DNA of 64,000 bases from a virus. Its lineage: Duplodnaviria; Caudoviricetes. The stretch covers positions 1 to 64,000 of the IMG/VR virus record IMGVR_UViG_2687453341_000003. The stretch is one strand, 5' to 3'. Both the position numbers and the translations under genes were made by a program. Positions within the stretch are counted from its first letter, which is position 1. Every line of letters starts with the position of its first letter. Positions 19,701 to 40,170 of the stretch are shown here, one piece after another. The notes below the pieces were generated by a model. It was not told the DNA's origin and searched no databases. It saw only the letters and a program-made list of their open reading frames with translations.

Positions 19701-21150
19701 CCGTTACATCTCCTGGAGAAAGTGAAGTTGAATCGGTCGAGAGTCCGAGCTCACGCATGAGCGAGATCTCTTTCGCGCGTTGTTTAAGTTCCGCCTCCCA
19801 ATCACGCCCCTGCCTCGCGTATTCATGGGCCAGAGTTGTCGTATGATTGGCGAGGCGGATTTTCTGGGCATTGGCTTCTTTGGCTGGGTCGACATGCTCA
19901 TGTCCGTCCCAGAACCATTGATGCTCGAACGACGAGTCGAGGGTGCGAAGCGAGTTAGGCAGATAGCCTTCGATGAGAATCGCTTCGCGCAGCCATGCGT
20001 ACAGAATGCGATCCAGAATGGTGCGAGCCATCTGGGACTGCTCGACACGGATCGACTTGAAGTAGGTTTGGTGGTCGAGTCTCCCGGAGGCATAGTTGTA
20101 ACCCGACGAATTACCAGCAGCGACATTGAACGGCATGTTCAAACAACGTGCGATTTCGTTGAGAATCTCGCGTTTGAACTCTGCGTAAGTCGTGGCTGGT
20201 TGCTCAGCATGCATCTGAGCCATCTTCCAACCGCCTGGCATGGTCAGCAGGGCTCGCTTCTCCAGCTCGATCGGCTCGAACGGTTCAGCAGCGTCCGCTT
20301 CGCCACCGGCCGGCGCATCGGTGTAGAGAATCCCAGCGAAGTCAGCCGCTGTTTCGGCAGCCGCTAATACTGCCAAAGTGAATCGTCGCAGTTGTGCAAA
20401 CAGTGGCAGCGCCGGCGTGATATCGGGGATACCACGGATCTGCCCTGGACGATCGCTGCGGAAGAAATGGAGGATTGAATTGGCATCGATGGTGTCGTAA
20501 CTCTCGGTCAACGAGAATGCGTCGTCGCCCGGATGTTCTCGAAGAACATCGTATGAGATTGGGTTGCCATGCTCATCGAAGCGAATGCCATCGAGGTAAC
20601 GATTACTGTCGAGAGCCAAGATAGGTGACGTGACCTGTTCGGCTTCGACCAGCTTGAGATCGAGTTGAACCGGCGAATCGATTCTTGGGTTACTGGTTAG
20701 CAAACCAAATGATTCACCGTCCGATACGCGGGCGAGCCGCATCGTGCGTAGCTTCTCTGCCAAGCAAATTGCATCAGCCCACGCAAAGAACTCTTGCTCA
20801 ACAAATCGGTTTGCAAATGCATCCATAGTCAGCATTTGCAATCGAGGGCCCGTGCCAACACAGTCGTTGGCCAGAGTCAGCGAGATGCCACGAGCATAAG
20901 AGTTGTTGGCAATCTCGTATCGCGAACGGTTGCGTAGCGTGCGGCGCACTTCGGGGCTATTGGCCGCACTGGCCGATAGTCCGTCTGCGGCCGCCCAGTG
21001 GCGAACGTTGTCGACCGTGGTGGTCGCAGCGTCGTAGCGCCCCAGCAATCTCACCAACGACCAGGGGTGTCGGGTCGAGCGTCCACGGACGAGCGATCGA
21101 TCTTTGCGATCGCCGTTCTTGCTCAGAATCCCTGACAACAACTTAAACAT
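19666..21150 (-). CDS. Lambda-family portal protein (intact)
   Basis: LRNRSRYE..NN, DGESF, RPGQIRG.P, YNYASGR and HVDPAKE motifs. Confidence 0.93.
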   Translation of the reverse strand: MFKLLSGILSKNGDRKDRSLVRGRSTRHPWSLVRLLGRYDAATTTVDNVRHWAAADGLSASAANSPEVRRTLRNRSRYEIANNSYARGISLTLANDCVGTGPRLQMLTMDAFANRFVEQEFFAWADAICLAEKLRTMRLARVSDGESFGLLTSNPRIDSPVQLDLKLVEAEQVTSPILALDSNRYLDGIRFDEHGNPISYDVLREHPGDDAFSLTESYDTIDANSILHFFRSDRPGQIRGIPDITPALPLFAQLRRFTLAVLAAAETAADFAGILYTDAPAGGEADAAEPFEPIELEKRALLTMPGGWKMAQMHAEQPATTYAEFKREILNEIARCLNMPFNVAAGNSSGYNYASGRLDHQTYFKSIRVEQSQMARTILDRILYAWLREAILIEGYLPNSLRTLDSSFEHQWFWDGHEHVDPAKEANAQKIRLANHTTTLAHEYARQGRDWEAELKQRAKEISLMRELGLSTDSTSLSPGDVTDDEDIAVEQAE

Positions 21151-21222
21151 CCGTGACTCAATCCCTACTGTTAAACCCGACACCCCTGCCTATAGAAACA
21201 AGCTCGATCAGTTGCGAACCAA

Positions 21223-21530: not shown

Positions 21531-23801
21531 CTACTGGTTCCGCCGGCGCTTCTGCATCTCAGAAAAGCTCATCCGCTCCTTACGGATCTCGGCCGTGCCT
21601 TCGATGCCTGGAAGAATCACGCCTTGCATTGACGCCGCAACCGCAGAACCAACCAAACAGTCAAACCAGTGGTTGTCGGGCTGCTCCGGTCGCTGCTTCC
21701 ATTCGTCGACGCTCCGGCCGCGGGCCTCTGTCTTGACGAAGTACTCCGAGGTTAGATGCTCGGCGAGCATGCGATGGGTCTCGGCGTTGGTGCCAAAGAG
21801 CGAAAGGCAACCGCGATCGCCCATCGCGACTTGCAGGCGAGCGTTGATAAACGACTTCCACCAGTTCGTATCGTAGACCACGTGGCGGATGGCCCGCTTA
21901 CCGGCGACGTTGGGGATACGCCAGTTGAGCCCTACGCGATCACCTGGCCGGCGACGATATTCGCTAAACGGCAAACTCGATGCGCCCACGAAGCGACCGT
22001 GGCTGGGGATGATCACAGCGGCGTGTTTTGACTGCCGGCAGAACTGGTAGACCACATCCGTCGACTGGCCCCAGTTAGCATCGATCAAACAGCGACCGAT
22101 GCGCATCGCTGCACCGTCATCTCGCTGCCATTCCCGATCGAGTAGTTTTGAAGTTAGCGATTCGAGGCCGGCGTAGATCGATCCTTCGAGTCCGCTTCCA
22201 GTCGCTTCGGAGCTCAGTGTCTGGCGAGCCTCGCGCAGCGTAAAGTAGGGACGCTGCTGGTCGGGGTAGCAACCATAGTCGATTACATAACCCGTGTAAT
22301 CGTCCTCCCAAGCGGTGACCACATAGAACAGGAGCTTTTGCTGGACGTCAATGAAGGCCGTGAGATGGTTTGCACCGATCGATACCAAACCACGATCCAT
22401 GCGGTTGATCTTTCTCGCGACTTCTTCTGGTTTGAGCATTCCGTCAACCACCGTTTCCGCTGGCAGAGGTTGGTTTTGATATTCGGCGAAGAACGCAGCT
22501 TCGTCTTGTAGCTTGAGATTCATCGCGTGTTGGATTGCAGAGAGTTCGTCGTAGTTGAATCGCTCCTGCCAAGCGATAACGGCACCCTCGTCCATCGCGG
22601 CTTGATTCTGACGATAGAACTCGGTGGCCGCTTCACCACCATCACCGCCACGCATCCCTTCGGCGCGGATCTCGGCGTAACGTTCCCATAGCGTATCGTT
22701 CTTGGGGAACGCATAGACCATCTTTGTCCGCTCGCCATTCCATTCGGGATGCCGATTGCGATCGAGGATATTGTCGGCCATATCACCCGGGCGAATCACG
22801 GTGCAGGGCATGATGCCCGATATTTTCTTGCCCGGCCCGGCCAAGCCAAGGACTGCGCCGGCGAGGATGCTTTCGCGATTCGCGCATTGCGAGAGCGAAC
22901 GAGCGCTCTCATCCGTTTGCGGGTCATCGAGTACCACAAGACTCGGACGTACTGTTCTGCCATCTGGACGCTTGAACTTCATACCGCGGATGCGACCCGT
23001 AAGGCCGGCGACCTTGATGATCGCTCCGCTAGCGCTGCTACCCTCGATTGTTGGTAAGACGACTTCTTTGGCGGTCCATCCGATCTGCGTGCGCTTGCCT
23101 TTGTAAAGTTGACCATTGGCTCGATTGGAAATCCCATCGAGGGCTTGGATCGGGAAGCAGACCTCGGGGAAGTCGGCTAAGAGCAGCTCGTTGCTGTCGA
23201 GTTCGGTTTTGATTGAGTCGAGCATGTCACACGCATGACCTTCATCGCTGCCGATCAAACATACGAAGTTACGATGCCCGTAAAGCACCGCCCATATGCA
23301 AGCGACTTCAGCAATCGAACTCTTGCCGCTACCACGCGCCATCGCGAGTGCAAACAAACCGCCATGCACAACCGCTTGCTCGATCTTCTCGATGACCTTG
23401 ATGTGGTCCGGCGACCAGGCGAGATGGAACGTTAGCGGAAAGTATGTTTCACAAAAGTATCGGAAGTCTCGCGACGCCCGATCTTTGCGATCTGGGTTAT
23501 CGACCTCTGGTAGTTCACCAATGTCTCGACCTGCAAGTGCGAGCGCTGCATTGCGTGCGCGAGCTCGCTCCTTCATCGCATCGTAGGGATCGACACCGTT
23601 TGTCGTACGAGGTGTATGTCGTACGACATGCATCCATGCGCAATAGCGAAGCAAATCGACGGTCTTATTGTCGCCGATGCGTGCGCCGGCGCGTTGACGA
23701 TGGCGATACAGTTGACGCTCGCTGATCACCTCGCCTAGCGGCGTCGAGTTCAGCAGTCGGCATAGCTCGCTTGGTTTTAGCTTCCTCGGATCACTCGCCA
23801 C
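21531..23801 (-). CDS. Terminase large subunit (ATPase plus gpA-type nuclease)
   Basis: Walker A ARGSGKS, Walker B VVLDD, nuclease motifs FIDVQ and DNHWFDC; GTG start. Confidence 0.92.
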   Translation of the reverse strand: MASDPRKLKPSELCRLLNSTPLGEVISERQLYRHRQRAGARIGDNKTVDLLRYCAWMHVVRHTPRTTNGVDPYDAMKERARARNAALALAGRDIGELPEVDNPDRKDRASRDFRYFCETYFPLTFHLAWSPDHIKVIEKIEQAVVHGGLFALAMARGSGKSSIAEVACIWAVLYGHRNFVCLIGSDEGHACDMLDSIKTELDSNELLLADFPEVCFPIQALDGISNRANGQLYKGKRTQIGWTAKEVVLPTIEGSSASGAIIKVAGLTGRIRGMKFKRPDGRTVRPSLVVLDDPQTDESARSLSQCANRESILAGAVLGLAGPGKKISGIMPCTVIRPGDMADNILDRNRHPEWNGERTKMVYAFPKNDTLWERYAEIRAEGMRGGDGGEAATEFYRQNQAAMDEGAVIAWQERFNYDELSAIQHAMNLKLQDEAAFFAEYQNQPLPAETVVDGMLKPEEVARKINRMDRGLVSIGANHLTAFIDVQQKLLFYVVTAWEDDYTGYVIDYGCYPDQQRPYFTLREARQTLSSEATGSGLEGSIYAGLESLTSKLLDREWQRDDGAAMRIGRCLIDANWGQSTDVVYQFCRQSKHAAVIIPSHGRFVGASSLPFSEYRRRPGDRVGLNWRIPNVAGKRAIRHVVYDTNWWKSFINARLQVAMGDRGCLSLFGTNAETHRMLAEHLTSEYFVKTEARGRSVDEWKQRPEQPDNHWFDCLVGSAVAASMQGVILPGIEGTAEIRKERMSFSEMQKRRRNQ

Positions 23802-23997
23802 GTCCCATCTCCTTTGCTTGCCACGCGCTGTAGTGCACGAGGTTGATCGTGCCATCGGCGTTCACCGGCGCACCGCTTTGTATGTCAAGGCGGATCTTCT
23901 CTGGATCGATCCGCTCTCGGTATGCGGCCGCAAGTAGCTTCGCCGCTTGTTCCACCGGAATCCTCGTCGGATCGACCTGGCCCGTTCCTTCACTCAT
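23791..23997 (-). CDS. Small pre-terminase protein (possible DNA-binding/TerS-like)
   Basis: Overlaps the terminase start; homolog at 38549-38755; GGAGG RBS. Confidence 0.75.
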   Translation of the reverse strand: MSEGTGQVDPTRIPVEQAAKLLAAAYRERIDPEKIRLDIQSGAPVNADGTINLVHYSAWQAKEMGRGE

Positions 23998-24146
23998 CGC
24001 ATTCCTCCGTGACTTGGGATCTCGAAACGTGGGGCCACCGTTTGCGCACGGTCGCGTTTTGGCCGCATGTTCGCCTGGTTATGCGGAGCATGTTTGGACG
24101 CGATGGTGGCGTAATGCTGGGGCACCGGTGGCCTCTCAAAAAACAT
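23994..24146 (-). CDS. 50-aa bridging ORF, homologous to the C-terminus of the 1336-aa antisense ORF
   Basis: MFFERPPVPQHYAT...PSHGGMR. Its ATG overlaps the end of the 2096-aa ORF and its stop forms ATGA with the next gene. Confidence 0.45.
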   Translation of the reverse strand: MFFERPPVPQHYATIASKHAPHNQANMRPKRDRAQTVAPRFEIPSHGGMR

Positions 24147-24175
24147 GGAAATTACTAGGAAAACATGCAAGACTT

Positions 24176-24212
24176 CGCTTGAGGTTCCTCGAAACGCATG
24201 GCTCATGTGTGT
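24176..24212 (+). promoter_or_regulatory. Cassette leader repeat 1 (GGCTTG-N14-GCATGGCTCATGTGTGT)
   Basis: Fixed 20-nt offset between the two boxes; about 60 nt upstream of the amidoligase ATG. Confidence 0.8.
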
Positions 24213-24270
24213 CATCGCGACGCAGAAAACGCGACGCAAAACACACCTCGAACCACAAAGGAACAGAACG

Positions 24271-25128
24271 ATGAACGCAAACGAACTTTCTTGGGGAATT
24301 GAATTCGAATGTACGCTTCCTAGCACCGACAACACACCGATCGGCCCCTACCACAACGGATACCAAGTACCCTGGCTGCCAACCGGATGGAAAGCAGAAC
24401 GCGACGGGAGCATCCGACCCGAGAACGCCAGCCGCAAAGGTTGCGAGTTTGTAAGCCCAATACTCAAAGGGGTTGAAGGCGTACAGCAGATCGAGAACGC
24501 GATCGACCAAATCAACGCTCGCGGGGGCCGAGTGAATTCCAGCTGCGGACTTCACGTAACTATTAGCTGGCACGGAGACGCAGCCGCCTTGGCTCGATTG
24601 ATTTCCTTGGTCGGCAACCACGAACGAGCGATCTACGCTTCGACCGGAACCCGCAAACGCGAACAGATGATGTACGCCAAGCGAATCAAACAATACGGCA
24701 ACAAAGACAACGCCAAGAGCCGATGCGAATCGGATCGCTACCACCTGCTGAACTTGACCCACCTGACCCGCGGCAAAAACCGAATCGAATTCCGAGCCTT
24801 CGGCGGAACGCTCAACAAGACCAAGGTGGTCGGATACCTGATGATGGTTTTGGGTTTGGTTGAACTCGCCCTCAATACCAAACGATGCAGCGAATGGGAT
24901 TACATCAAGAAGGAAGGAACTAAGAGTTGCTGGGATCGCCCTGGTGCCGGCCTTGGCGAAACCGAACTCAACCGATTGTTCTACCGACTCGGATGGACCA
25001 AGGGTTGGTACAAGGGTGCCCTTCGCGACAAGGTCTACGGAGAGATCGCCGGCGAAACCAAACCGGAATGGAAAACGATCAAAACCAAACTCCTCGAGCT
25101 CGCCCGCAAATACGACCACGCGGCCTAA
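24271..25128 (+). CDS. Putative amidoligase (COOH-NH2 ligase type 2 family)
   Basis: WGIEFE, ERDGSI, CEFVSPIL, NSSCGLHV, RYHLLNL and IEFR motifs. Confidence 0.85.
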   Translation: MNANELSWGIEFECTLPSTDNTPIGPYHNGYQVPWLPTGWKAERDGSIRPENASRKGCEFVSPILKGVEGVQQIENAIDQINARGGRVNSSCGLHVTISWHGDAAALARLISLVGNHERAIYASTGTRKREQMMYAKRIKQYGNKDNAKSRCESDRYHLLNLTHLTRGKNRIEFRAFGGTLNKTKVVGYLMMVLGLVELALNTKRCSEWDYIKKEGTKSCWDRPGAGLGETELNRLFYRLGWTKGWYKGALRDKVYGEIAGETKPEWKTIKTKLLELARKYDHAA

Positions 25129-25142
25129 ATCGCAACCACATA

Positions 25143-25170
25143 GAACGCCGCGAACGGAATCGCGGCGTTC
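25143..25170 (+). terminator. GC-rich hairpin after the amidoligase gene
   Basis: GAACGCCGCG-loop-CGCGGCGTTC followed by TT. Confidence 0.55.
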
Positions 25171-25324
25171 TTCCGCTTGGTCGCAACACTTGCGCACCGT
25201 CGCGTTCTTCACACCGCATGCGACCAAGTACCCAAGATCCAAACGGACGCAACACACGCGAACGTTGTGCGACACGCGGCCGGCGAGAAAGCTGCGAAAA
25301 ACATTCTGAAAACATGCCGTAAAC

Positions 25325-25361
25325 GGCTTGAGGTTAATCAAACCGCATGGCTCATTTGTGG
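25325..25361 (+). promoter_or_regulatory. Cassette leader repeat 2
   Basis: GGCTTGAGGTTAATCAAACCGCATGGCTCATTTGTGG. Confidence 0.8.
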
Positions 25362-25407
25362 CATCACGTAAACGATTCCATTCCCTTTCCCAAACGGAGA
25401 AACACAG

Positions 25408-25701
25408 ATGAACGACACGAATCAAACGAGCGCCGAACAAGCGATCCAGGACCAACTGCGACGGCTCAAATGGATGATCCCCGATGCTATGCGCCGCATG
25501 GACGAGGCGGCTCAATGCATGCTTCGTCGCGCTCAAGGTGCGGTCAAAGACACCGAGGCATTGCTGGCCGACCAACCATGCAGCATGTCCTGGGTCGATT
25601 TCGCCGAGGGCGACCTCCGCGCTGCACGCGAGGCCAAAGCGGAACTTGCAAAACTTCTCGAGCAACAAAGAATGCTCGAGTTCTTCTTGAGGAAAGACTA
25701 G
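25408..25701 (+). CDS. Small helical hypothetical protein (cassette 1 only)
   Basis: GGAGA RBS; follows a leader repeat. Confidence 0.75.
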   Translation: MNDTNQTSAEQAIQDQLRRLKWMIPDAMRRMDEAAQCMLRRAQGAVKDTEALLADQPCSMSWVDFAEGDLRAAREAKAELAKLLEQQRMLEFFLRKD

Positions 25702-25906
25702 GCCGCTGCAGAGGCAAAGACCGAACACGGAGGTTCGGTCGACGAATCGTTGGCAATATTGGGCCAACGGTTCGTCAATGTGGGCCTGTTTCGTGTATGT
25801 AACTAATAGTGGCCAACGGTCTGCAGCAATGCGAACGGCGGCATCGTGTGCGAATTGTTCGCAAAGGCAGAAACATTCAGATTTCTGCCGAGATTCTCGC
25901 AGGCTT

Positions 25907-25943
25907 GGCTTGAGCTTTCGCCAACCGCATGGCTCATGTGTGT
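25907..25943 (+). promoter_or_regulatory. Cassette leader repeat 3
   Basis: GGCTTGAGCTTTCGCCAACCGCATGGCTCATGTGTGT. Confidence 0.8.
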
Positions 25944-25989
25944 CATCGCGTAAACGATTCAAACCTTTTTCCAAAACGGAGACACAAAC

Positions 25990-26247
25990 ATGACCAACGC
26001 AAACACCCAACACGCAGCGACCGACGCAACCCTTCGCCAGATCTTCAAGGCGATGGATGCCCACCAAGCCCAAGAGATCCGCGAAGCCTACTACAAGGCG
26101 ATCGAGGGTTTGATGACCTTGGCAGAAACCCTTGAGATCGCCGACGCACAACAAACACCCTGCGCCGGCCCGCTTCTCACCGAACACTTCAACGCGGTCC
26201 AAGCCCTGGACGCGATGAAGAACAGTCGCCTTGGAAAGATCCTCTAA
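25990..26247 (+). CDS. Small hypothetical protein (homolog at 40171-40428)
   Basis: GGAGA RBS; conserved second copy. Confidence 0.85.
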   Translation: MTNANTQHAATDATLRQIFKAMDAHQAQEIREAYYKAIEGLMTLAETLEIADAQQTPCAGPLLTEHFNAVQALDAMKNSRLGKIL

Positions 26248-26452
26248 GCCACAGACCAGCGGAATGCCACGGACGCCGCGAATGGAAGCGCGGCGTTCTT
26301 CCGCTTGGTCGCGACACACGCCCACTGCCGCGTGGTGTATCCCTTCTTCGACTAAGTACCCAACAATCAAAACATCGCAACACGGGCCAACGTCGGGGCC
26401 CGTAAGGCCTCCCCTGAAACATGGAAGAACACGGGAAAAAACTGCTGAAATC

Positions 26453-26489
26453 GGCTTGCTACCGGTTAAACCGCATGGCTCATGTGTGT
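26453..26489 (+). promoter_or_regulatory. Cassette leader repeat 4
   Basis: GGCTTGCTACCGGTTAAACCGCATGGCTCATGTGTGT. Confidence 0.8.
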
Positions 26490-26538
26490 CATCGCCCAGC
26501 GACCAACTGCTTTCACCACGCAATAGGAAAACAAACCG

Positions 26539-26814
26539 ATGTCCCGAACCAATGCCAGAACCGTTGCTATCAGAACCGCCTTCAAACAAATGCCTCGCGC
26601 CACCGCGATGGACCTCTGTGAGGACTATCGCGAAGTGGTCACAAGGTTGAAACGAATGACCGACAACTTGGCCGGCGCATTCGTGGTCGCGAGTGGAGAT
26701 TCGGCCCGTGCCCTGGAAGCAGAACTCCGCATGTTCGAAGAGGCCATAGACGTCCTTGCCGGCAGCATGCTGCCCGAAGTAATCGAAGAATATCTGGCTT
26801 CCAAGGAATGCTGA
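26539..26814 (+). CDS. Small hypothetical protein (cassette 1 only)
   Basis: AGGA RBS; follows a leader repeat. Confidence 0.75.
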   Translation: MSRTNARTVAIRTAFKQMPRATAMDLCEDYREVVTRLKRMTDNLAGAFVVASGDSARALEAELRMFEEAIDVLAGSMLPEVIEEYLASKEC

Positions 26815-26842
26815 GAAAACCTGCTGAAAACATTGCAAGGAC

Positions 26843-26879
26843 GGCTTGAGGTTAATCGAACCGCATGGCTCATGTGTGT
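26843..26879 (+). promoter_or_regulatory. Cassette leader repeat 5
   Basis: GGCTTGAGGTTAATCGAACCGCATGGCTCATGTGTGT. Confidence 0.8.
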
Positions 26880-26922
26880 TATCGCATAACCAATTTTCAT
26901 TCACCCAAACGGAGAACCAAAC

Positions 26923-27195
26923 ATGAACCTCGACACCCTGATCGAAATCCTCAGCGACTACCGCGAAGAGTTCGGAGGCGACGCCGAAGTGCGACTGATG
27001 ACCCAGCAGAACTGGCCCTTCGAGAACCGGATCTGCGGCGTTACCAGCGGACGCGACATAAACGACGCGTCCGACGATGAGGATGAAGACGACGACGCCC
27101 AAGACGTTGCCGACGACTACACGGTCTACATCGTCGAAGGCGGGCAGATCTGCTACGGCAGCAAGCGGGCTTGGGAAACGTGTCGCGATAGTTGA
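26923..27195 (+). CDS. Small acidic hypothetical protein (homolog at 40459-40716)
   Basis: EVRLMTQQNWPFE motif and Asp-rich loop; GGAGA RBS. Confidence 0.85.
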   Translation: MNLDTLIEILSDYREEFGGDAEVRLMTQQNWPFENRICGVTSGRDINDASDDEDEDDDAQDVADDYTVYIVEGGQICYGSKRAWETCRDS

Positions 27196-27257
27196 CCGCG
27201 ACACATCGATGCGCCAAGGAGAAGATTCTGGAAAACCTTCAGAATCTTTTCTTCTTC

Positions 27258-27294
27258 GGCTTGCTGTCGGTTGAGCCGCATGGCTCATGTGTGT
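27258..27294 (+). promoter_or_regulatory. Cassette leader repeat 6
   Basis: GGCTTGCTGTCGGTTGAGCCGCATGGCTCATGTGTGT. Confidence 0.8.
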
Positions 27295-27339
27295 CAACGC
27301 ACTTGCGAGTTCACATCTACAAACCATAGGAGTAACACA

Positions 27340-27549
27340 ATGGCTGGTCACACACCACAACAGTACGAATCGTACAACGACAACTGGGCCGAGGTTCAAA
27401 ACCAACTGGCCTCTATCAAGGAACGGATTGACCAGTTCCCAAATCCACATTATGAGAACTTCAGTTTCTACGAGCACCAAAGCTTCACCCTGCGAGAGGT
27501 GGCACGAGCGCTCGAGGGCTTGCGCGAGTATCTCGGCATCGCCGACTAG
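27340..27549 (+). CDS. 69-aa hypothetical protein (cassette 1 only)
   Basis: AGGAG RBS precedes MAGHTPQQY. Confidence 0.75.
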   Translation: MAGHTPQQYESYNDNWAEVQNQLASIKERIDQFPNPHYENFSFYEHQSFTLREVARALEGLREYLGIAD

Positions 27550-27754
27550 TAGACCCAGCGTCAAATCAGAACCGCGGCGAATGCATGTGCCGCGTTGACT
27601 GGCTAACACAACGCGACACATCAAACGTGTCGCGTTCTTTCTTCTGCCTGCGCCCAATGATGGAACAAGAATACGAACGCGACACAAACGAACGTGGGCA
27701 AAATTGGGCGATGGGGAGAAACATGGAAAAAGACTCGGAAAAGCTGCTGGAATT

Positions 27755-27791
27755 GGCTTGATGCTGTTCAAACCGCATGGCTCATGTGTGT
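27755..27791 (+). promoter_or_regulatory. Cassette leader repeat 7
   Basis: GGCTTGATGCTGTTCAAACCGCATGGCTCATGTGTGT. Confidence 0.8.
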
Positions 27792-27837
27792 GCATACCAA
27801 ACGCGGTTTCAAACCAACCCAACACCGGAGAGACACG

Positions 27838-28086
27838 ATGCCAACCATGACCAACCGACCACGCCTGACCTCGGCCCAGTTCCTCGGAGCGCACCGGCGA
27901 GCGCTGGAAACAATCAGCGACCTGTACGCAGTGGTCGAAGAGATGCCGATCCTCGCCGCTTCCGACCCATCGACCATGAAACAGTTCTTCGACGAACTGG
28001 CTGATGTGCAGGCCACCGCAGCGAAACTCGCCCAACATTTCCGAACGCAGGTATGCACCGAAGAAAAGAATTCGAATTCCTTTTGA
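27838..28086 (+). CDS. 82-aa hypothetical protein (cassette 1 only)
   Basis: GGAGA RBS precedes MPTMTNRP. Confidence 0.7.
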   Translation: MPTMTNRPRLTSAQFLGAHRRALETISDLYAVVEEMPILAASDPSTMKQFFDELADVQATAAKLAQHFRTQVCTEEKNSNSF

Positions 28087-28090
28087 ATCC

Positions 28091-28127
28091 GGCTTGATGC
28101 GGTTCAAACCGCATGGCTCATGTGTGT
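28091..28127 (+). promoter_or_regulatory. Cassette leader repeat 8
   Basis: GGCTTGATGCGGTTCAAACCGCATGGCTCATGTGTGT. Confidence 0.8.
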
Positions 28128-28170
28128 TAACGCGAAAACGATTCACCAACCAAAAAACGGAGACCAGCAG

Positions 28171-28485
28171 ATGACCCAACACGACCTCGACCTGACGATC
28201 ACCAAGATCAGCAATCGCAACCGCGGTGCTGGCGGGTCTTGGGTGCAAGGCAAGATCAACGACGAATACCGATTCGATGCTTTGGTCTTCGCCGAACACG
28301 CAGAACACGAATCGTACGAATTGAACCAGAGCAAGATTTCGAAGCTTTGGGTTCAACGCCTGGCAGACCGCAAAGTGATGTTCAACTTCGATCGCGGGTT
28401 GGATGTGCCAGCGGTCAATACAGAGGTGCAGGTGATAGTCGACTTTCTCTGCGAGGGATTGTCGGACTTGGTCTTTGGTCAATAA
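28171..28485 (+). CDS. Conserved small phage protein (DUF7678-like; homolog at 41209-41523)
   Basis: WVQG.I...RF.ALVF, SKISKLW and FNFDRG.D motifs. Confidence 0.8.
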   Translation: MTQHDLDLTITKISNRNRGAGGSWVQGKINDEYRFDALVFAEHAEHESYELNQSKISKLWVQRLADRKVMFNFDRGLDVPAVNTEVQVIVDFLCEGLSDLVFGQ

Positions 28486-28554
28486 GCCGAAACGCAGCAC
28501 GGACGCGCGTAGTCGATCGGTGGTTCGATCGGCCTGACGATGGCAGCCAACCAC
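28486..28554 (+). ncRNA. Type II hammerhead ribozyme with loop-I pseudoknot
   Basis: GCC-GAAA, stem III, GUA cleavage triplet (28509-28511), stem I GUCGAUCG/CGAUCGGC, core CUGACGA, then U-GGC. Loop GUGGUU is complementary to downstream AACCAC. Confidence 0.88.
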
Positions 28555-28578
28555 GAACACAGATTTGGAGATACGAAG

Positions 28579-29148
28579 ATGAAGAAGGCAGAAGTAAAGA
28601 TCGGTGGCAAGTACTATGCGAACGTTTCGGGCAATCGCTGCGAGATTCGGATCGATGCCGAGAAGCCTCGGGGCGGTTGGGACGCAACCAACCTCGCGAC
28701 CGGCAAAAAGATCTTGATCAAGAGCGCCCAACGCCTGCAGGGCGAAGTGGGTGCGAAACGCGGACGCGCGAAGGTCACCACCGAAGGTAACGTAACGGTG
28801 GTTGAGAACGAACCAGCCACCGTCGAAACGATCGGAGGCGAAACGTCCACAGCGGTTGCGGTTCTCAAGAAGCCACGCAAGGCAAAGGCTGCATCCACCG
28901 AGACCGCCGACGCCGGCGAGAAGCGATTGAGCTGCGTCGCTGCGGCCTTGAAGGTTCTCAGCGAATCGAGCGAACCGATGAACGCTCAAGAGTTGATCAC
29001 CGCGATGGAAGCCAAGGGCTATTGGAGCAGCCCCGGTGGCAAGACTCCCCACGCGACCTTGTACAGCGCGATCCTTCGTGACTTGGCCAAGGGCGACGAT
29101 AGCAAGTTCGTGAAGACCGAACGCGGACGCTTCACCGTTCGAGACTAG
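28579..29148 (+). CDS. Protein with a C-terminal HARE-HTH-type winged helix
   Basis: LS...AA.KVL....EPM...ELI.......W....GKTPHATLYSAILR...RG.F motif. Confidence 0.8.
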   Translation: MKKAEVKIGGKYYANVSGNRCEIRIDAEKPRGGWDATNLATGKKILIKSAQRLQGEVGAKRGRAKVTTEGNVTVVENEPATVETIGGETSTAVAVLKKPRKAKAASTETADAGEKRLSCVAAALKVLSESSEPMNAQELITAMEAKGYWSSPGGKTPHATLYSAILRDLAKGDDSKFVKTERGRFTVRD

Positions 29149-29160
29149 GAGACCCAGCCG

Positions 29161-29394
29161 GTGAAACACTTTTACGATTTGCGAACGGTGGATGACTTGG
29201 CCGAAGGCGAGATCGCAGTGCCAGAGCCAGGCATCACCTACGACCTGCGAACGATTAACAATCGCAAGCTCGACGTCGGCAGCGTGGTGGACGTGATCCG
29301 CCAAGGTCCCACGCTGTTCGCCCGAACCGCTAGCGGAGATTCGATTGCCGTCTCCGGCCACGGCGCTGCCATCTTGGTACCGCACGACTTGTAG
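29161..29394 (+). CDS. 77-aa hypothetical protein (distant homolog of 40723-40962)
   Basis: AGGAG RBS with GTG start; shares DL..G....PE....Y and AR...G...AVSG. Confidence 0.75.
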   Translation: MKHFYDLRTVDDLAEGEIAVPEPGITYDLRTINNRKLDVGSVVDVIRQGPTLFARTASGDSIAVSGHGAAILVPHDL

Positions 29395-29571
29395 ACACGC
29401 CCGAAGCACGGAACGCTTCCCACCAATCGCCCCACGTTTACACCGTGTGGGCGTTTTCTCGTTGATGCGAACATAAGCCCAACCAGCAACACAACGCGAC
29501 ACGTCGCGGAACTGCGGTTCGCCGGCGCAGCCACATGTTTGGAAGAAATTCACAAAACATGCTCGCATGTT

Positions 29572-29608
29572 GGCTTGATGTTTTTGCGATTCGCTGGCTG
29601 ACTGTTGA
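29572..29608 (+). promoter_or_regulatory. Degenerate cassette leader repeat
   Basis: GGCTTGATG followed by a diverged GCTGGCTGACTG box. Confidence 0.45.
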
Positions 29609-29646
29609 GGATCGTCTTTCGTTTCTCCAACAACCAGGAACCAACT

Positions 29647-29862
29647 ATGGCCAAACCAGCCCTTGAGCCGGCAGCTCCCTACGAGAACCTGCACCTCGTA
29701 GCACGCGACTACCTCGATCGACTGCGTCAATCGCTCGATGCTATGCAACAACCAGATGACCCAAATCTGCGATGGCGGAAAGTTCACACGATGGCACAGG
29801 TCAACGCACGCCTGGCTCAAGCCGGCGAACTGCTCGACAAACTCAACCCAACCACCAAATGA
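29647..29862 (+). CDS. 71-aa hypothetical protein
   Basis: AGGA RBS precedes MAKPALEP. Confidence 0.7.
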   Translation: MAKPALEPAAPYENLHLVARDYLDRLRQSLDAMQQPDDPNLRWRKVHTMAQVNARLAQAGELLDKLNPTTK

Positions 29863-29874
29863 AACAAGGAACCA

Positions 29875-30105
29875 ATGACCATGCACACACGACTGAATAA
29901 AGGCGATCGCATCCGCTTGGTGTCGATGCCGCAAGATCCAGACCCGATCCCCGTTGGATCGCTCGGGACCGTCATTGATGTTCACGAGCATCACGATTGG
30001 ATGCAGGTCGATGTCGATTGGGACAACGGCCGCTCCCTCATGCTGACGATGCCCGACGATTGTGTCGCCATCGTCGAACCCAACCACCACGAACCATCGA
30101 AGTAA
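29875..30105 (+). CDS. DUF4314-family protein
   Basis: GDRIRLVSM..DPDPIP.G..GTV and V.WDNGRSL.L motifs. Confidence 0.8.
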   Translation: MTMHTRLNKGDRIRLVSMPQDPDPIPVGSLGTVIDVHEHHDWMQVDVDWDNGRSLMLTMPDDCVAIVEPNHHEPSK

Positions 30106-30117
30106 GGAAGCCAACCT

Positions 30118-30435
30118 ATGTCCACAAGAGCAACGATTGCCTGCAAGCAAGAAGACGGTCGCTACGCAGCGATCTACCTTCACTTCGATGGCTACCAAGA
30201 CCACGCCGGCAGAGTCCTCAAAGAACATTACACATCGATCGAGTCGGCACGAACGCTGGTCGCAGGTGGCGATATTCGATCGCTCGCTAACGACGGAACG
30301 CCCGAACGATTCACCGACGGTAATCGCACGGTTGTCATGCCGACGCGCGCGGCTCTCCACGAGTTCGCGAGGAACTGCGGCACCGAGTATGTTTACGTTT
30401 TCGAGGACGACGCTTGGCATTGTCATAGGCTTTGA
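30118..30435 (+). CDS. Conserved phage protein with an MSTR...Y.H.DGY motif
   Basis: MSTRATI, IYLHFDGY and EYVYVF..W motifs; AAGGA RBS. Confidence 0.8.
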   Translation: MSTRATIACKQEDGRYAAIYLHFDGYQDHAGRVLKEHYTSIESARTLVAGGDIRSLANDGTPERFTDGNRTVVMPTRAALHEFARNCGTEYVYVFEDDAWHCHRL

Positions 30436-30441
30436 TGGGCT

Positions 30442-30864
30442 TTACTGATTCGATGAGTTTTGTTTTGCACGAAGTTTCCGATTGCGTTTCGCGATGACGG
30501 CGAGGTCCGATAGACAGCGCTTGCACACCCCCATCACACCGTTGCGTCCCTTGTATTCGTAGAACTCCGTGTCGACGGGCCGATACCATTGGCAGCGCCG
30601 ACAGCGTTTCAACCAGCGGCTGCCAACTCGGATGCAACCGCTGTGAATCCGCTTGTGCTCCAAGCGAGTCACCAGCATGAGGTTCTCAAGTCGGTTATCG
30701 AGCTTGTCACCGTTGCGATGGTGTAGCTCCATGCCTTCAGGGATAGGCCCATGGTGCGTCTCCCAGACGATTACATGCTCAAACCTTTGCTTCCGATCCT
30801 TGCACGTGATCCGTCGATAGCCGAACGGCGTGATTGAACCTCTGGCCGGTGACCGTTGCGTCAT
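30442..30864 (-). CDS. HNH endonuclease with a C-terminal Zn-binding CxxC pair
   Basis: EHVIVWE.HHGPIP, HHRNGDKLDNRLENL and EH...H motifs. Confidence 0.9.
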   Translation of the reverse strand: MTQRSPARGSITPFGYRRITCKDRKQRFEHVIVWETHHGPIPEGMELHHRNGDKLDNRLENLMLVTRLEHKRIHSGCIRVGSRWLKRCRRCQWYRPVDTEFYEYKGRNGVMGVCKRCLSDLAVIAKRNRKLRAKQNSSNQ

Positions 30865-31833: not shown

Positions 31834-32274
31834 TTCCAGGCAACCCACTGATTCCGATCGCGAATGCAACTTGGACAATTCTGGTCGATAGCTTCAAGAG
31901 GCGGTTGGGGTGCGGAACCTCCCCGGACCGACCCTGATAAGGAACCTTCTCGGAGAAGTCGATTTCGCAACTGCTTGAAAAACGAGGGCTTACGGAGTTC
32001 GAGACCGAATCGCTCGGTCGTAAAAGGTGTGCCGCGTTACGGAAAATCTGCTTAACAGTCAGGACTTTCGCTGCGCGCGTTTTTAGTCATTTTAGCTTTC
32101 CGCGACCTGCACATAAGTTCTTGTTTGAACAGTCGTTAACCGCTTTCGGGTTACATCGGTGCCCCGCATCGGTCTCGAACGCATGCGACATACTACTTAG
32201 CAATCACTGCGAACCGGCTGCACCGCCATGAAGCAGTTGTTACATGCAGCCGTCGAACTATCCTAGACCCACAT

Positions 32275-33654
32275 CCGGGGTGCAAAAAGTGCGCTCCGCC
32301 TATGTATTTCTCGGGAATTCACGGCTTTTCATCATGGCAAGCTTCCGCAACGTTTACACATCCCTCTTGCTCGTCATTGCCGGGTCAACGGACAGGGAAC
32401 TTGCCCGCCAGGTCAACTACCTCAAGGCGGAGAACCAAATCCTTCGCAGTCGGCTTCCTGGTCGGATCAGTCTAACTGAACGCGAGAAGAACCGCCTGAT
32501 TCGTTTTGCCAAAAATCTTGGTTCGGCACTCAATGAGTTGGCCACGATTGTTCACCCCGGGACCATCCATCGCTGGATTCGCGAAGCCGCAGCAAAATCC
32601 AAGGCGCGCCGAAAAGGCAAAAGCGGCCGTCCCCGGACTGCAAAGGATATCGAGAAACTGATCCTTAAACTGGCCAAAGACAATTCCTGGGGCTACACCA
32701 GGATCCTCGGCGAACTAAAGAAACTTGGGATCGAATCGGTAACGCGCAACACGGTCAAAAACATTCTCAAACGCAATGGCTTCGAGTCAGGCCCTAAGCG
32801 AGGACCGGGCACTTGGGACGAGTTCGTCAATCGCCATGCGAAAACGCTTTGGCAATGCGACTTCTTCTCGAAGAAGATCGTTTCGAAGGCTGGCCTTCGA
32901 GACATCTTTGTTTTGATCTTTATCAACGTTGAAACACGTCGCGTCTACATTTCGCCGTCGACCTACAAGCCAGATGAGCAATGGATGGTTCAGCAAGCGA
33001 CAACGTTTATCGAGTCGACAAAGGCGGGAGGTCCGAAATGCAAGATCCTGATGCTCGACAACGACGCAAAGTACTCCAAGCTGTTCATGGACGTATTTGA
33101 AAAGGGAAAAATCAAAATCCAACGAACTCCGATCCGATCCCCGAACATGGTCGCCTTTGCCGAACGATTCGTTCAAACGATCAAGCAAGAATGTCTCGAC
33201 CATTTCGTCGTTTTTGGCCACAAACACATGGACCTCCTGTGCCAAGAATTCAAAGACTACTATCACGAAGAACGGCCGCATCAGGGACTGGAGAACGAGC
33301 TTGTGATTGACGGTACGAGAACGAAGAAACGATCGAAGTCTGGAACGACACAATCCGAAGCCGTATCGATTCCGATTTCTGAGATTCGTTGCAAAGAACG
33401 GCTCGGTGGACTGCTCAAGAGCTATAGCCGCAGAGCGGCGTAGCTCAAGTCATCGTTCCACTTCCTTTGATACGTTCACTTCAGGTTTGTGCTTACTGCT
33501 GCGCACGACGCGAACATCCATCTGCACCGCAGCCATCTGTGTCCAAAAATGATCAATGTGCTATCTCAAACGTGATTCCAACTGCTCTCGATCCCTTACC
33601 TATTTCGTTCGGAAAATCACCTTGCTCGATGCAATCTAGTTTTTGCACAGGGCG
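32275..33654 (+). mobile_element. Insertion sequence encoding an rve-type DDE integrase/transposase
   Basis: Short inverted termini GTGCAAAAA (32280-32288) and TTTTTGCAC (33640-33648). The right end coincides with the portal breakpoint. Confidence 0.65.
32334..33443 (+). CDS. Integrase core domain (DDE) transposase
   Basis: N.SWGY.RI.GEL, WQCDFF (D), DNDAKY (D), AERFV.TIK.ECLD (E), Y.EERPHQG and RLGGLL motifs. Confidence 0.92.
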   Translation: MASFRNVYTSLLLVIAGSTDRELARQVNYLKAENQILRSRLPGRISLTEREKNRLIRFAKNLGSALNELATIVHPGTIHRWIREAAAKSKARRKGKSGRPRTAKDIEKLILKLAKDNSWGYTRILGELKKLGIESVTRNTVKNILKRNGFESGPKRGPGTWDEFVNRHAKTLWQCDFFSKKIVSKAGLRDIFVLIFINVETRRVYISPSTYKPDEQWMVQQATTFIESTKAGGPKCKILMLDNDAKYSKLFMDVFEKGKIKIQRTPIRSPNMVAFAERFVQTIKQECLDHFVVFGHKHMDLLCQEFKDYYHEERPHQGLENELVIDGTRTKKRSKSGTTQSEAVSIPISEIRCKERLGGLLKSYSRRAA

Positions 33655-34974
33655 CAGAGTGGTCGTATGATTGGCGAGGCGGATTTTCTGGGCATTGGCT
33701 TCTTTGGCTGGGTCGACATGCTCATGTCCGTCCCAAAACCATTGATGCTCGAACGACGAGTCGAGAGTGCGAAGCGAGTTAGGCAGATAGCCTTCGATGA
33801 GAACCGCTTCGCGCAGCCATGCGTACAGAATGCGATCCAGAATGGTGCGAGCCATTTGAGACTGCTCGACACGGATCGACTTGAAGTAGGTTTGATGGTC
33901 GAGTCGCCCAGATGCGTAGTTGTAGCCCGACGAATTTCCAGCGGCGACATTGAACGGCATGTTCAAACAACGTGCGATTTCGTTGAGAATCTCACGCTTG
34001 AACTCGGCGTACGTGGTCGCCGGTTGCTCAGCGTGCATCTGAGCCATCTTCCAACCGCCAGGCATCGTTAGGAGCGCTCGCTTCTCCAGTTCGATCGGCT
34101 CGAACGGTTCCGCGGCGTCGGCTTCGCCACCTGCGGGCGCGTCGGTGTAGAGAATCCCGGCAAAGTCAGCTGCTGTTTCTGCGGCAGCAAGCACTGCTAG
34201 AGTGAATCGACGAAGTTGTGCGAAGAGTGGCAGCGCTGGCGTAATGTCAGGAATACCACGAATCTGCCCTGGCCGATCACTGCGAAAATAGTGAAGGACC
34301 GAACTGGCGTCGATCGTGTCATAGTTCTCTGTCAATGAGAATGCGTCATCACCTGGATGTTCTCGGAGCACATCGTATGAAATCGGATTGCCATGCTCAT
34401 CAAAGCGGATGCCATCGAGATAGCGATAGCTGTCAAAGGCCAAGAGAGGCGAACTAACCTGTTCGGCCTCGACCAGCTTTAGATCAAGTTGAACCGGCGA
34501 ATCAATTCTCGGGTTACTGGTTAGCAAACCAAACGATTCACCGTCTGAAACGCGAGCAAGCCGCATCGTGCGTAGTTTCTCTGCGAGGCCAACTGCATCA
34601 GCCCAAGCAAAGAACTCCTGTTCAACAAAACGGTTGGCAAACGCATCCGCAGTCAGCATCTGCAATCGAGGTCCGGTACCAACACAGTCGTTGGCCAGAG
34701 TCAGCGAGATACCGCGAGCATAAGAATTGTTAGCGATCTCGTATCGCGAACGGTTGCGTAGCGTGCGACGCACTTCAGGGCTATTGGCCGCACTGGCCGA
34801 TAGTCCGTCAGCGGCTGCCCAGTGGCGAACGTTGTCGACCGTGGTGGTCGCAGCGTCATAGCGTCCCAGCAGTCTCATCATCGACCAGGGGTGTCGGGTC
34901 GAGCGTCCACGGACGAGCGATCGATCAACTCGATCACCGTTCTTGCTCAACATCCTTGATAACAACTTCAACAT
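33553..34974 (-). pseudogene. Lambda-family portal, C-terminally truncated at the IS end
   Basis: Matches 19666-21150 up to LANHTTTL (about 33655), then reads into IS sequence. Confidence 0.85.
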
Positions 34975-35045
34975 CCGTGAATCAATCCCTACTGTGAAAC
35001 CCGACACCCCTGCCAATAGAAACAAGCTCGATCAGGTGCGAACGA

Positions 35046-38559: not shown

Positions 38560-38755
38560 GGCCCATCTCCTTTGCTTGCCAAGCGCTATAGTTCACGAGG
38601 TTGATCGTGCCATCGGCGTTCGCGGGCGCACCTTCATGGAGATCGCTTCGGATCTTCTCGGCATCGATCCGTTCTCGGTAGGCAGCGGACAGAAGTTTCG
38701 CGGCTTGTTCGATCGAGAGTCTCGTCGGATCGACCGGCTGTTTGTCTTCACTCAT
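38549..38755 (-). CDS. Small pre-terminase protein (copy 2)
   Basis: Homolog of 23791-23997. Confidence 0.75.
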   Translation of the reverse strand: MSEDKQPVDPTRLSIEQAAKLLSAAYRERIDAEKIRSDLHEGAPANADGTINLVNYSAWQAKEMGRGE

Positions 38756-38934
38756 CGCATTCCTCCGTGACTTGGTAGTTCAAAACGTGGGGCCACTGTT
38801 TGCGCCGTGTCGCGTTTCCCCATCCACTTCGCCTGGTTATGCGAAGCATGTTTGAACGCGACGGTGGCGTAATGTTGGGGCACCGGTGGCTTCTCGAAGA
38901 ACATGCGAAATTGCTGGAAAAACATGATGCAATT

Positions 38935-38972
38935 CGCTGGATGATTCCTCTCCCGCAAGGCTTCATGTGTGT
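38935..38972 (+). promoter_or_regulatory. Variant cassette leader repeat with a 1-nt insertion
   Basis: CGCTGG-N14-GCAAGGCTTCATGTGTGT. Confidence 0.65.
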
Positions 38973-39030
38973 TGTCGCGACGCGAAGAACGCGACGAAAC
39001 ACAAACCTTGCACCCCAGAGGAACATCACC

Positions 39031-39888
39031 ATGAACGCAAACGAAATTTTCTTTGGTCTGGAATTTGAGACGACGCTTCCGAACAGTGACACCACACCAA
39101 TCGGCCCCTACCACAACGGATACCAAGTCCCTTGGTTGCCAAACGGATGGAAAGCGGAACGCGATGGTAGCATCCGCCCTGAGAGCCCATGCCGCAAAGG
39201 ATGCGAGTTCGTAAGCCCCAAGCTGAAAGGTTACGATGGCCTCAAGGAAATCGAGGAAGCGATCGACCAAATCAACGCTCGTGGGGGACGAGTCAATTCG
39301 AGCTGTGGTCTCCATCTTTCGATAGATTGGCGTGGCGACGCAGCGGCACTCGCACGACTGATCTCCCTGGTTGGCAACCACGAGAAAGCGATTTTCGCGA
39401 GTACTGGGACTCGCCGCCGCGAACAAACGATCTACACCAAGCAGATCAAGCAATACGGCGACAAAGACGCTGCGAAGAATCGATGTGAAGCGGATCGCTA
39501 CCACCTGCTGAACCTTACCCACCTCGCTGCCGGTAGAAACCGTATCGAATTTCGGGCTTTCGCAGGAACTCTCAACAAGACCAAGGTGGTCGGATACCTG
39601 ATGATGGTTTTGGGATTGGTAGAGCTGGCCCTGAACACCAAACGCTGCAGCGATTGGGACTACATCAAGAAGGAAGGAACCAAAAGCTGCTGGGATAGAC
39701 CAGGCGCCGGCCTTGGGGAAACGGAGATCAACCGATTGTTCTACCGCCTCGGTTGGACCAAGGGTTGGTACAAGGGCGCTCTTCGCGACAAGGTTTACGG
39801 GGAGATCACAGGGGAAACCAAACCGGATTGGAAGGCGATCAAGACCAAGCTGATCGAGCTTGCCCGCAAGTACGACCGCGCGGCCTAG
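39031..39888 (+). CDS. Putative amidoligase (copy 2)
   Basis: FGLEFE, CEFVSP, NSSCGLH and IEFR motifs. Confidence 0.85.
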   Translation: MNANEIFFGLEFETTLPNSDTTPIGPYHNGYQVPWLPNGWKAERDGSIRPESPCRKGCEFVSPKLKGYDGLKEIEEAIDQINARGGRVNSSCGLHLSIDWRGDAAALARLISLVGNHEKAIFASTGTRRREQTIYTKQIKQYGDKDAAKNRCEADRYHLLNLTHLAAGRNRIEFRAFAGTLNKTKVVGYLMMVLGLVELALNTKRCSDWDYIKKEGTKSCWDRPGAGLGETEINRLFYRLGWTKGWYKGALRDKVYGEITGETKPDWKAIKTKLIELARKYDRAA

Positions 39889-39902
39889 GACTAATCCAGA
39901 CG

Positions 39903-39931
39903 AAACGCCGGGAAAACAATCCCGGCGTTTT
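39903..39931 (+). terminator. Hairpin terminator, potentially bidirectional
   Basis: AAACGCCGGGA-loop-TCCCGGCGTTTT. Confidence 0.6.
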
Positions 39932-39954
39932 GACGTTTTCTGGCCCACCATTTC

Positions 39955-39984
39955 GCCAGTATGGCGTCGGCTTGAGTAGTTCAA
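39955..39984 (+). promoter_or_regulatory. Bipartite motif GCCAGTA-N11-TGAGTAGTTCAA
   Basis: Same spacing as the three other copies. Confidence 0.65.
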
Positions 39985-40087
39985 AGATAGTGGGCAATCG
40001 TCTTCGGCGTCGTCGCATATCGCGTTTTGTGCGACATGTCGCAGATCAGAGAAACCTGTGAGATTTGCCATTAATCCTCGCATGTTC

Positions 40088-40124
40088 GGCTTGAGGTTAT
40101 CTAAACCGCATGGCTCCATGGTGT
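40088..40124 (+). promoter_or_regulatory. Cassette leader repeat (cassette 2)
   Basis: GGCTTGAGGTTATCTAAACCGCATGGCTCCATGGTGT. Confidence 0.75.
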
Positions 40125-40170
40125 CATCGCGTAAGCGATTCGAAACCGAGTTCCCAACGGAGACACAAAC

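Follow-up and report, generated by a model that had tools for sequence, protein, structure and literature searches.

The element between the DUF7678 gene and the HARE-HTH gene of this phage sequence is a genuine type II hammerhead ribozyme, a new member of the known family RF02276 that as a ribozyme is ordinary. Judging from its sequence, it is likely that this hammerhead is functional and that, as part of the 5' untranslated leader of the HARE-HTH gene, it cleaves and processes the mRNA. The gene array in which it is found is more unusual than the ribozyme itself, since the strand opposite to the array, ribozyme included, is kept free of stop codons in one reading frame.

The window, meaning the whole stretch of 64,000 nucleotides analysed here, looks like tandem related prophages, the second of which is possibly truncated. 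Packaging genes of lambda type form two modules, one with terminase at 21531-23855 and portal at 19666-21183, the other with terminase at 36292-38559 and portal at 33553-35025, and a transposase gene with an rve domain (32244-33443) lies between them. Two more related elements were found near 5.91 and 5.99 Mb of the genome.

Identification of the ribozyme

A search of the whole 64-kb window on both strands with the 4227 Rfam families at their gathering thresholds (cmscan) gave two matches in total, both to Hammerhead_II (RF02276) and both on the plus strand. The first, referred to below as copy 1, spans 28485-28552 and scores 39.6 bits against a gathering score of 37 (E 1.5e-4), which is a narrow margin; copy 2, at 41523-41590, reaches 50.8 bits (E 1.7e-7). 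A permissive Rfam scan of 21000-45000 returned, besides these two hammerheads, two chance-level matches below the gathering score and no other ribozyme family. The gene upstream of copy 1 encodes a DUF7678 protein (59.6 bits against a Pfam cut-off of 27, E 3e-16). The product of the downstream gene matches the HARE-HTH domain at residues 120-188 (51.7 bits against a cut-off of 25.9, E 1.1e-13) and has an N-terminus, MKKA-VKIGG, that is common to its homologues. The features of the region are as follows.

28064-28145, plus strand: promoter-like repeat GGCTTGA-N14-CCGCATGGCTCATGTGTG (repeat families D1 and D7), ahead of the DUF7678 gene
28171-28485, plus strand: DUF7678 gene, the upstream cistron (Pfam PF24726)
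28485-28554, plus strand: type II hammerhead ribozyme, from the start of the Rfam match to the end of the 3' tail
28486-28488, plus strand: 5' strand of stem II, GCC, with its partner GGC at 28542-28544
28489-28491, plus strand: core G12 A13 A14 (within GAAA), read from the sequence and invariant in 33 of 33 relatives
28492-28510, plus strand: stem III hairpin, strands 28492-28498 and 28505-28510, loop ACGGAC at 28499-28504, A28496 bulged
28511-28512, plus strand: predicted scissile bond A28511/G28512, A28511 being H17 of the GUA triplet by its position in the Rfam alignment
28512-28533, plus strand: stem I hairpin of 8 pairs (28512-28519 with 28526-28533, including U28513-G28532), loop GUGGUU at 28520-28525
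28534-28540, plus strand: core CUGACGA (C3 U4 G5 A6 N7 G8 A9), read from the sequence
28545-28554, plus strand: 3' tail AGCCAACCAC, read from the sequence
28545-28549, plus strand: AGCCA, directly 3' of stem II, the favoured partner of UGGUU (28521-28525) in loop I
28549-28554, plus strand: AACCAC, the alternative partner of GUGGUU, mutually exclusive with the AGCCA register
28567-29148, plus strand: HARE-HTH gene (Pfam PF05066) with its Shine-Dalgarno sequence GGAGA (28567-28571) and its ATG at 28579

The last A of the DUF7678 stop codon TAA (28483-28485) is the first position of the Rfam match and is followed immediately by GCC-GAAA. At the other end, 12 bases separate the tail from GGAGA, and another 7 bases lead to the ATG, which stands 25 nucleotides past 28554. 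An earlier note on this DNA had proposed a type II hammerhead between the two genes, with a complete core and three stems, beginning directly after the DUF7678 stop, ending about 25 nucleotides before the HARE-HTH start and cleaving after A28511, and had asked for a search with the Rfam hammerhead models. That search, now carried out, places the element above the gathering score of RF02276, and the Pfam matches and the covariation described below agree with the identification. The note's placement of the element holds at both ends, its core is intact at every nucleotide in the sequence and in the Rfam alignment, and the predicted cleavage position is likewise recovered, A28511 being the nucleotide that precedes stem I in that alignment.

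The catalytic core that characterizes RF02276 is represented by CUGACGA, GAA, the A15.1-U16.1 pair (A28492-U28510, to which stem III of copy 1 adds 5 more pairs) and an H17 that is A and not G. The topology is that of type II, with stems I and III capped by loops and stem II open, as seen in the Rfam alignment and in a covariation alignment that is itself fitted to the model. Under the acceptance rule described in PMC3088659, standard pairs are required at N1.1-N2.1, N10.1-N11.1 and A15.1-U16.1, and according to the methods of that paper H17 must be A, C or U. Among the core-adjacent pairs of copy 1, G28512-C28533 and A28492-U28510 are standard, and C28488-G28542 pairs only with U28541 left unpaired between A9 and G10.1. 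Such an extra unpaired nucleotide at this place is seen in 31 of the 33 relatives and is therefore typical of the lineage, with L015 as an example of a relative that does not have it. H17 among the relatives is C, A or U, and never G.

Conservation of the RNA structure

The covariance model used in the comparison of relatives was built from 33 sequences, which were then realigned to it. Because this alignment is fitted to the structure and sequences of the window are among those in the model, it is the Rfam score that gives independent evidence of family membership. Within this alignment, in which pair counts are biased towards pairing by the fit, 88-92% of the cells are paired overall, and two-sided changes are found at 14-15 of the 23 pairs, in 103-104 cells. 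None of 500 shuffles attained as many cells with two-sided changes, as high a covariation score or as large a fraction of paired cells, and when the 3' partners were slid by 1-3 columns pairing fell from 88-92% to 30-54%. Stem I has two-sided changes at all 8 of its pairs, with 95% of the cells paired, and stem III at 6 of 7; the 3-bp stem II barely varies, and 96% of its cells are paired. Moreover, CUGA-GA is invariant in all 33 aligned relatives. At the level of compared sequences, this pattern shows that the RNA structure of the hammerhead is under selection.

The pseudoknot was the part of the earlier description that had to be modified. It had been drawn between GUGGUU of loop I and AACCAC, and this complementarity is indeed present, with six Watson-Crick pairs possible in copy 1, but the covariation favours UGGUU:AGCCA as the probable register. 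Across the 33 relatives, 66% of the cells pair in the GUGGUU:AACCAC register, with zero two-sided changes, and the fourth copy of the genome breaks it. The UGGUU:AGCCA register has 5 pairs, one of them G-U, pairs in 86% of the cells and covaries. Matched changes were found as UAGU:AGCUA in the fourth genome copy and in viral contigs L084, L085 and L087, as UGGCC:GGCCA in L015 and UUGAGC:GCUCAA in L024, and, again in viral contigs, as UGGGU:ACCCA in L104, L106 and L118 and UGGCU:AGCCA in L114. With this register the element also has the pseudoknot of at least 4 pairs, from loop I to the nucleotides 3' of stem II, that belongs to RF02276. Shuffling of the tail sequence by sequence, as a pseudoknot test, gave no discrimination (p 0.007 to 0.8).

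Nine bases of stem I and loop I, GAUCGGUGG (28515-28523), occur again at 28599-28607, in codons 7-10 of the HARE-HTH gene. This repeat is a possible competing partner of the 3' strand of stem I; the pairing shows up in minimum-free-energy folds and does no better there than in shuffles.

Association with HARE-HTH genes

The hammerhead is tightly linked to HARE-HTH genes. There are exactly four matches to the HARE-HTH family in the genome, and a hammerhead is located directly upstream of each of the four. Copies 1 and 2 are syntenic within two diverged blocks of several kilobases in the window, with 75-87% identity. An Rfam scan of the whole genome added a third copy at C1:5989024-5989091, bringing its total to three, and missed the fourth at C1:5910188-5910260 (L139 5188-5260, minus strand), which scores 66.9 bits with our own model and 45.1 bits with Rfam; counts from such scans are therefore lower bounds. 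Core, stem I and tail differ little or not at all among the first three copies, and the 25 bases from the tail to the start codon have diverged.

The same partnership extends beyond this genome. In the bacterial family, at least 26 of 151 genomes (the source genome and 150 others) contain at least 52 Rfam matches above the gathering score, and in the same phylum outside the family an above-cut-off match was found in 1 of 150 genomes. Using the HARE-HTH protein of the window as the tblastn query, a homologue was found as the next gene in 44 of the 52 family matches (just downstream in 28 of 31 first loci and 16 of 18 further loci), the eight exceptions being L004a, L015, L019, L034, L048 and three in L024. 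The ribozyme belongs with the downstream HARE-HTH gene and not with the upstream gene, because the upstream neighbour encodes a DUF7678 protein in just 8 of the 31 loci. An upstream stop codon ends 2-8 nucleotides ahead of CGAAA in 30 of 33 determinable cases, and in these loci the first downstream ORF start (ATG, GTG or TTG) lies 14-45 nucleotides past CUGANGA.

Relatives of the HARE-HTH protein are encoded at 80 IMG/VR loci, 77 of which could be tested, since the upstream sequence is present. The ribozyme ends 23-26 nucleotides ahead of the HARE-HTH relative in 54 of these 77. All testable loci with at least 52% protein identity have the ribozyme, and the 23 loci without it have 39-48% identity. 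Among isolated phages, the HARE-HTH protein gave a single weak and partial match. Within the library of papers searched, no publication linking hammerheads with HARE-HTH genes was found. The gene association appears to be new, and the fixed partnership with HARE-HTH, at a fixed distance to the start codon, provides a concrete system for testing the role of self-cleavage; bacterial hammerheads with a known role are few.

Some loci have a different arrangement, in which two or three hammerheads are distributed around small genes. This was seen in L004 (1500-1932), in L024, which has three within 1.3 kb, and in viral loci L109, L111, L113, L114, L115, L119 and L120. The gene after the first hammerhead of L004 resembles window gene 26923-27195, as judged from translations compared by eye, unaligned. 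The window gene is preceded by a promoter-like repeat at the place where its L004 counterpart has a hammerhead.

Expression signals and proposed role

Many genes of the arrays are preceded, about 45-55 nucleotides upstream of their starts, by an intergenic repeat built of an A-rich stretch, GGCTTGA, 14 variable bases and CCGCATGGCTCATGTGTG. Its copies are located at 24176-24272, 25325-25421, 25907-26003, 26416-26489, 26806-26879, 27221-27294, 27718-27791 and 28054-28127 in the first array and at 40088-40184 and 41102-41164 in the second; these are ten coordinate ranges, and nine copies were counted in the window. The possibility that the repeat is a structured RNA was rejected: RNAalifold on nine copies gave -4.12 kcal/mol with 1 of 13 pairs covarying, no conserved RNA structure was found, and the repeat looks like a DNA signal. 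A scan for the sigma-70 consensus found 0 sites against 2.7 expected, indicating that the repeat is not sigma-70-like. As a guess, given that its spacing is fixed and that covarying structure is absent, it might be a promoter recognized by an unknown sigma factor or polymerase. A PHROGs search gave no function for the array proteins, with the exception of an amidoligase at 24271-25128.

Neither a terminator-like hairpin nor a promoter-like repeat was found between the DUF7678 and HARE-HTH genes, and the nearest such repeat upstream of the ribozyme is the one ahead of the DUF7678 gene; for these reasons we infer that the two genes share a transcript. Terminator-like hairpins on the array strand are found at 27610-27636 and 29431-29451, both on the plus strand, and the latter, located after gene 29161-29394, is a possible end point of the transcript with the ribozyme.

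We propose that the ribozyme would be transcribed together with the DUF7678 cistron, probably from the promoter-like repeat at about 28064-28145. The RNA would fold into stems I and III, the 3-bp stem II and the pseudoknot between loop I and the 3' tail, and would then cut its own backbone in the cell between A28511 and G28512. On the upstream side, the mRNA would retain its stop codon and terminate, with a 2',3'-cyclic phosphate, at the stem III hairpin. On the downstream side, the 8-bp stem I hairpin, bearing a 5'-OH, would become the very start of the HARE-HTH mRNA, which would lie about 55 nucleotides ahead of the Shine-Dalgarno sequence. In bacterial RNA decay, a 5'-terminal hairpin and a 5'-OH slow the decay that depends on the 5' end. 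After cleavage the two cistrons would have separate fates, and the HARE-HTH message would probably be stabilised and insulated.

In four metatranscriptome runs compared with 27000-30500, two contigs bridge 28511/28512 (X1 record 4 and X2 record 27), and it must be taken into account that the RNA libraries behind the contigs may contain DNA. Two other contigs stop at 28485 and 28499, away from the cut site, and all four are assembled contigs, from which RNA ends cannot be read. Sequences near-identical or related to 27000-30500 are present in public runs, from RNA libraries and others, of soil, marine, mud and aquatic origin. At the repeat element those contigs join across entire cassettes, as from 27300 to 28107; such joins suggest cassette-level strain variation, or an assembly effect at the repeats.

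An effect of cleavage on translation was considered as well. When the folds of the precursor and of the 3' product were compared for copies 1 and 2, accessibility of the ribosome-binding site was unchanged (z -0.04 to -0.67). A switch at the ribosome-binding site, or another translational effect, is without support, as the folds show nothing beyond shuffles.

It is also conceivable, but unlikely, that the ribozyme is active and that its main role is other than mRNA processing for stability, for instance as a regulated switch of HARE-HTH expression, as the source of a defined small RNA or as a generator of ends for ligation. The strict linkage to one gene family would suggest a gene-specific role, the two or three hammerheads that flank small genes in L004, L024 and the seven viral loci would fit a role of this kind, and the role of bacterial hammerheads is mostly unknown according to statements in PMC8782182 and PMC3088659. 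However, the source genome has one hammerhead per array, which makes the excision of a segment impossible there, and the RNA is minimal, with no visible ligand-binding or extra domain. Moreover, the results of PMC3088659 drawn on here include a finding of no spliced or circular products.

That copy 1 is a decaying and catalytically dead relic, and that only its better-scoring paralogues work, appears quite improbable. It is true that copy 1 is the weakest of the four genome copies by Rfam score (39.6 versus 45.1-53.9 bits). Its weak points are the bulge in stem III, the G-U beside the first stem I pair and the unpaired U between A9 and G10.1, and its triplet is GUA instead of GUC. The minimum-free-energy structure predicted for it does not correspond to the hammerhead and scores no better than those of shuffled sequences (z -0.03), although the stem III hairpin does form in it; the minimum-free-energy fold of copy 2 is the hammerhead (z -2.33). 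Nevertheless, no core position of copy 1 has been lost, and GUA agrees with the rule in the methods of PMC3088659 by which H is A, C or U. The copy 1 variant, defined by its GUA triplet, its stem III loop ACGGAC and a single bulged A, recurs unchanged in 12 viral contigs, and the same triplet and loop are present in L028, from another genus. Close variants in other viral contigs retain the pairs, as in L077, which has A:U at the site of the copy 1 bulge. Finally, the paralogues have diverged in the spacer 3' of the tail and not in the ribozyme. The reading that we prefer is that copy 1 would be a working hammerhead that processes the HARE-HTH mRNA.

The antisense frame of the gene array

The ribozyme is part of an array of plus-strand genes (first array, 24136-30435) located between methylase/HNH genes and a lambda-type large terminase gene, those all being on the minus strand. 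The earlier note had remarked that the antisense frame stays open through the ribozyme, which is borne out and reflects a strong and conserved constraint. The stop-free frames, taken from ORF lists and, for the first array, also from stop counts, are the following.

24136-30426, minus strand: frame of 2096 codons, antisense to the whole first array and running through the ribozyme
38752-42762, minus strand: frame of 1336 codons, second array
L140 8589-13262, antisense to the array: frame of 1557 codons, third array
L139 3390-7487, antisense to the array: frame of 1365 codons, fourth array

Each of these giant frames is in codon register with its array and runs in the direction from the methylase or HNH gene to the large terminase gene. 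The plus-strand ORFs checked that have a family or homologue match all start at coordinate 1 modulo 3, and the reverse complement of the first array has 64, 1 and 82 stops in its three phases. TTA, CTA and TCA are used in 0 of the 2416 codons of 20 array genes, versus 194 of 8057 (2.4%) in late genes of the same prophages, a rate that predicts 58 uses in the array genes (P ~5e-26). In the non-coding spacers these triplets occur 0 times in phase, versus 19 and 33 times out of phase. Because the array genes lack TTA, CTA and TCA, the opposite strand reads as one ORF of 1336-2096 codons.

The spacer that contains the ribozyme keeps this phase in 34 of 43 determinable cases, with eight lengths between 93 and 123 nucleotides, when one third would be expected by chance; among relatives its length changes mostly in steps of three nucleotides. 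For this count third-position G+C served to call the upstream frame and tblastn the downstream one, and 4 of the 52 cases were undetermined. Five more spacers (L025, L027 and L044-L046) were left out, the upstream call falling in non-coding DNA; L025 and L027 are in frame by a simpler method and L044-L046 by coordinate arithmetic. Calling by the longest open frame was discarded, as it gave wrong frames, non-coding frames being long in this G+C-rich DNA.

Substitutions between paralogues in the plus-strand genes have rates of 0.106, 0.066 and 0.368 at the three codon positions, and in the DUF7678 gene too the differences between paralogues concentrate at third positions; the corresponding values in the spacers, 0.23, 0.20 and 0.24, show no codon-phase bias. 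Since the third-position bias is present in the plus-strand genes and absent from the spacers, the plus-strand genes are real and the antisense amino-acid sequence is unconstrained. By these comparisons it is the openness of the frame that is conserved, and not the amino-acid sequence. It is very improbable that the conservation of the ribozyme comes from coding in the antisense ORF or from a DNA-level signal, with an incidental likeness to a hammerhead, since, although the stop-free antisense frame around the region is conserved and its spacer is mostly in frame, two-sided compensatory changes at 14-15 pairs are what is expected of an RNA helix and not of coding, the spacer substitutions are without codon-phase bias, and chance is unlikely given the E value of copy 1, the same location in four paralogues and 52 matches in the genomes of the family.

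The open frame is seen in related elements as well. In all of eight arrays, two of the source genome and six of other family members, one late-strand frame has 2-14 stops versus 27-84 in the others, and among the 80 viral loci an antisense run of at least 800 open codons is found in 54, versus 2 for the sense strand. In the third array GAGGAG precedes the start of the giant ORF, an ATGA overlapping the stop of the methylase gene; for the giant antisense ORFs of the first two arrays no clear Shine-Dalgarno sequence was found. A Pfam search of the giant antisense ORFs gave no match.

A possible explanation, which we offer tentatively, is that the array and the ribozyme spacer are held in one codon phase and that the late transcript would be covered by ribosomes, and so protected from Rho-dependent termination, as it crosses the opposite-strand genes (a "ribosome bridge"). 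If this is true, the hammerhead would be an RNA on one strand and a series of readable codons on the other. If confirmed, the maintenance of a multi-kilobase antisense frame by way of spacer length, the phasing of genes and the choice of codons would represent a constraint of a new kind on the architecture of phage genomes.

A literature search on antisense ORFs found nothing resembling the array, and the published antisense overlapping genes that it found are far shorter. In Pseudomonas aeruginosa, PMC8850804 describes two antisense overlapping ORFs of 957 and 1536 nucleotides, each within one gene and under purifying selection. Those ORFs, like the frames described here, are long, antisense to annotated genes and in codon register with them. 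In contrast, the frames of the arrays extend over 4-6.3 kb and at least 12 genes with their spacers, with no detectable constraint on the amino-acid sequence.

Comparison with known hammerheads

Type II hammerheads were described in 2011 by Perreault et al. (PMC3088659), who report the pseudoknot, activity in vitro and prophage contexts as typical. The earlier note had taken the occurrence of hammerheads between phage genes as established, and the content of this paper and of PMC8782182 cited here supports it. The element of the window shares with RF02276, as presented in PMC3088659, the capped stems I and III, the open and very short stem II, the core, the pseudoknot from loop I to the nucleotides directly 3' of stem II and the prophage intergenic context. 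It differs in that its lineage has the extra unpaired nucleotide between A9 and G10.1 (U, or C in copy 2), aligned as an insert, and a near-invariant tail, UGGCAGCC, and in that copy 1 has the GUA triplet and the bulged stem III.

Three type II hammerheads of Desulfovibrio vulgaris cleave in vivo, as reported by cyPhyRNA-seq in PMC8782182. They are also of type II and are located near genes for hypothetical, phage-like and DNA-binding proteins, and the fragments of 29-32 and 39 nucleotides given there may be compared with about 27 and 38-43 nucleotides predicted here. The difference is that activity was demonstrated in D. vulgaris, whereas the ribozyme of the window is known from its sequence.

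The triple hammerhead of the Agrobacterium tumefaciens ardA region, according to its description in PMC3088659, is similarly located between small phage or early-type genes of one transcript, which it cuts into gene-length pieces. In A. tumefaciens there are several ribozymes per operon, whereas here there is one per array, always before a gene of the same family, and the other intergenic positions of the source genome hold the promoter-like DNA repeat instead.
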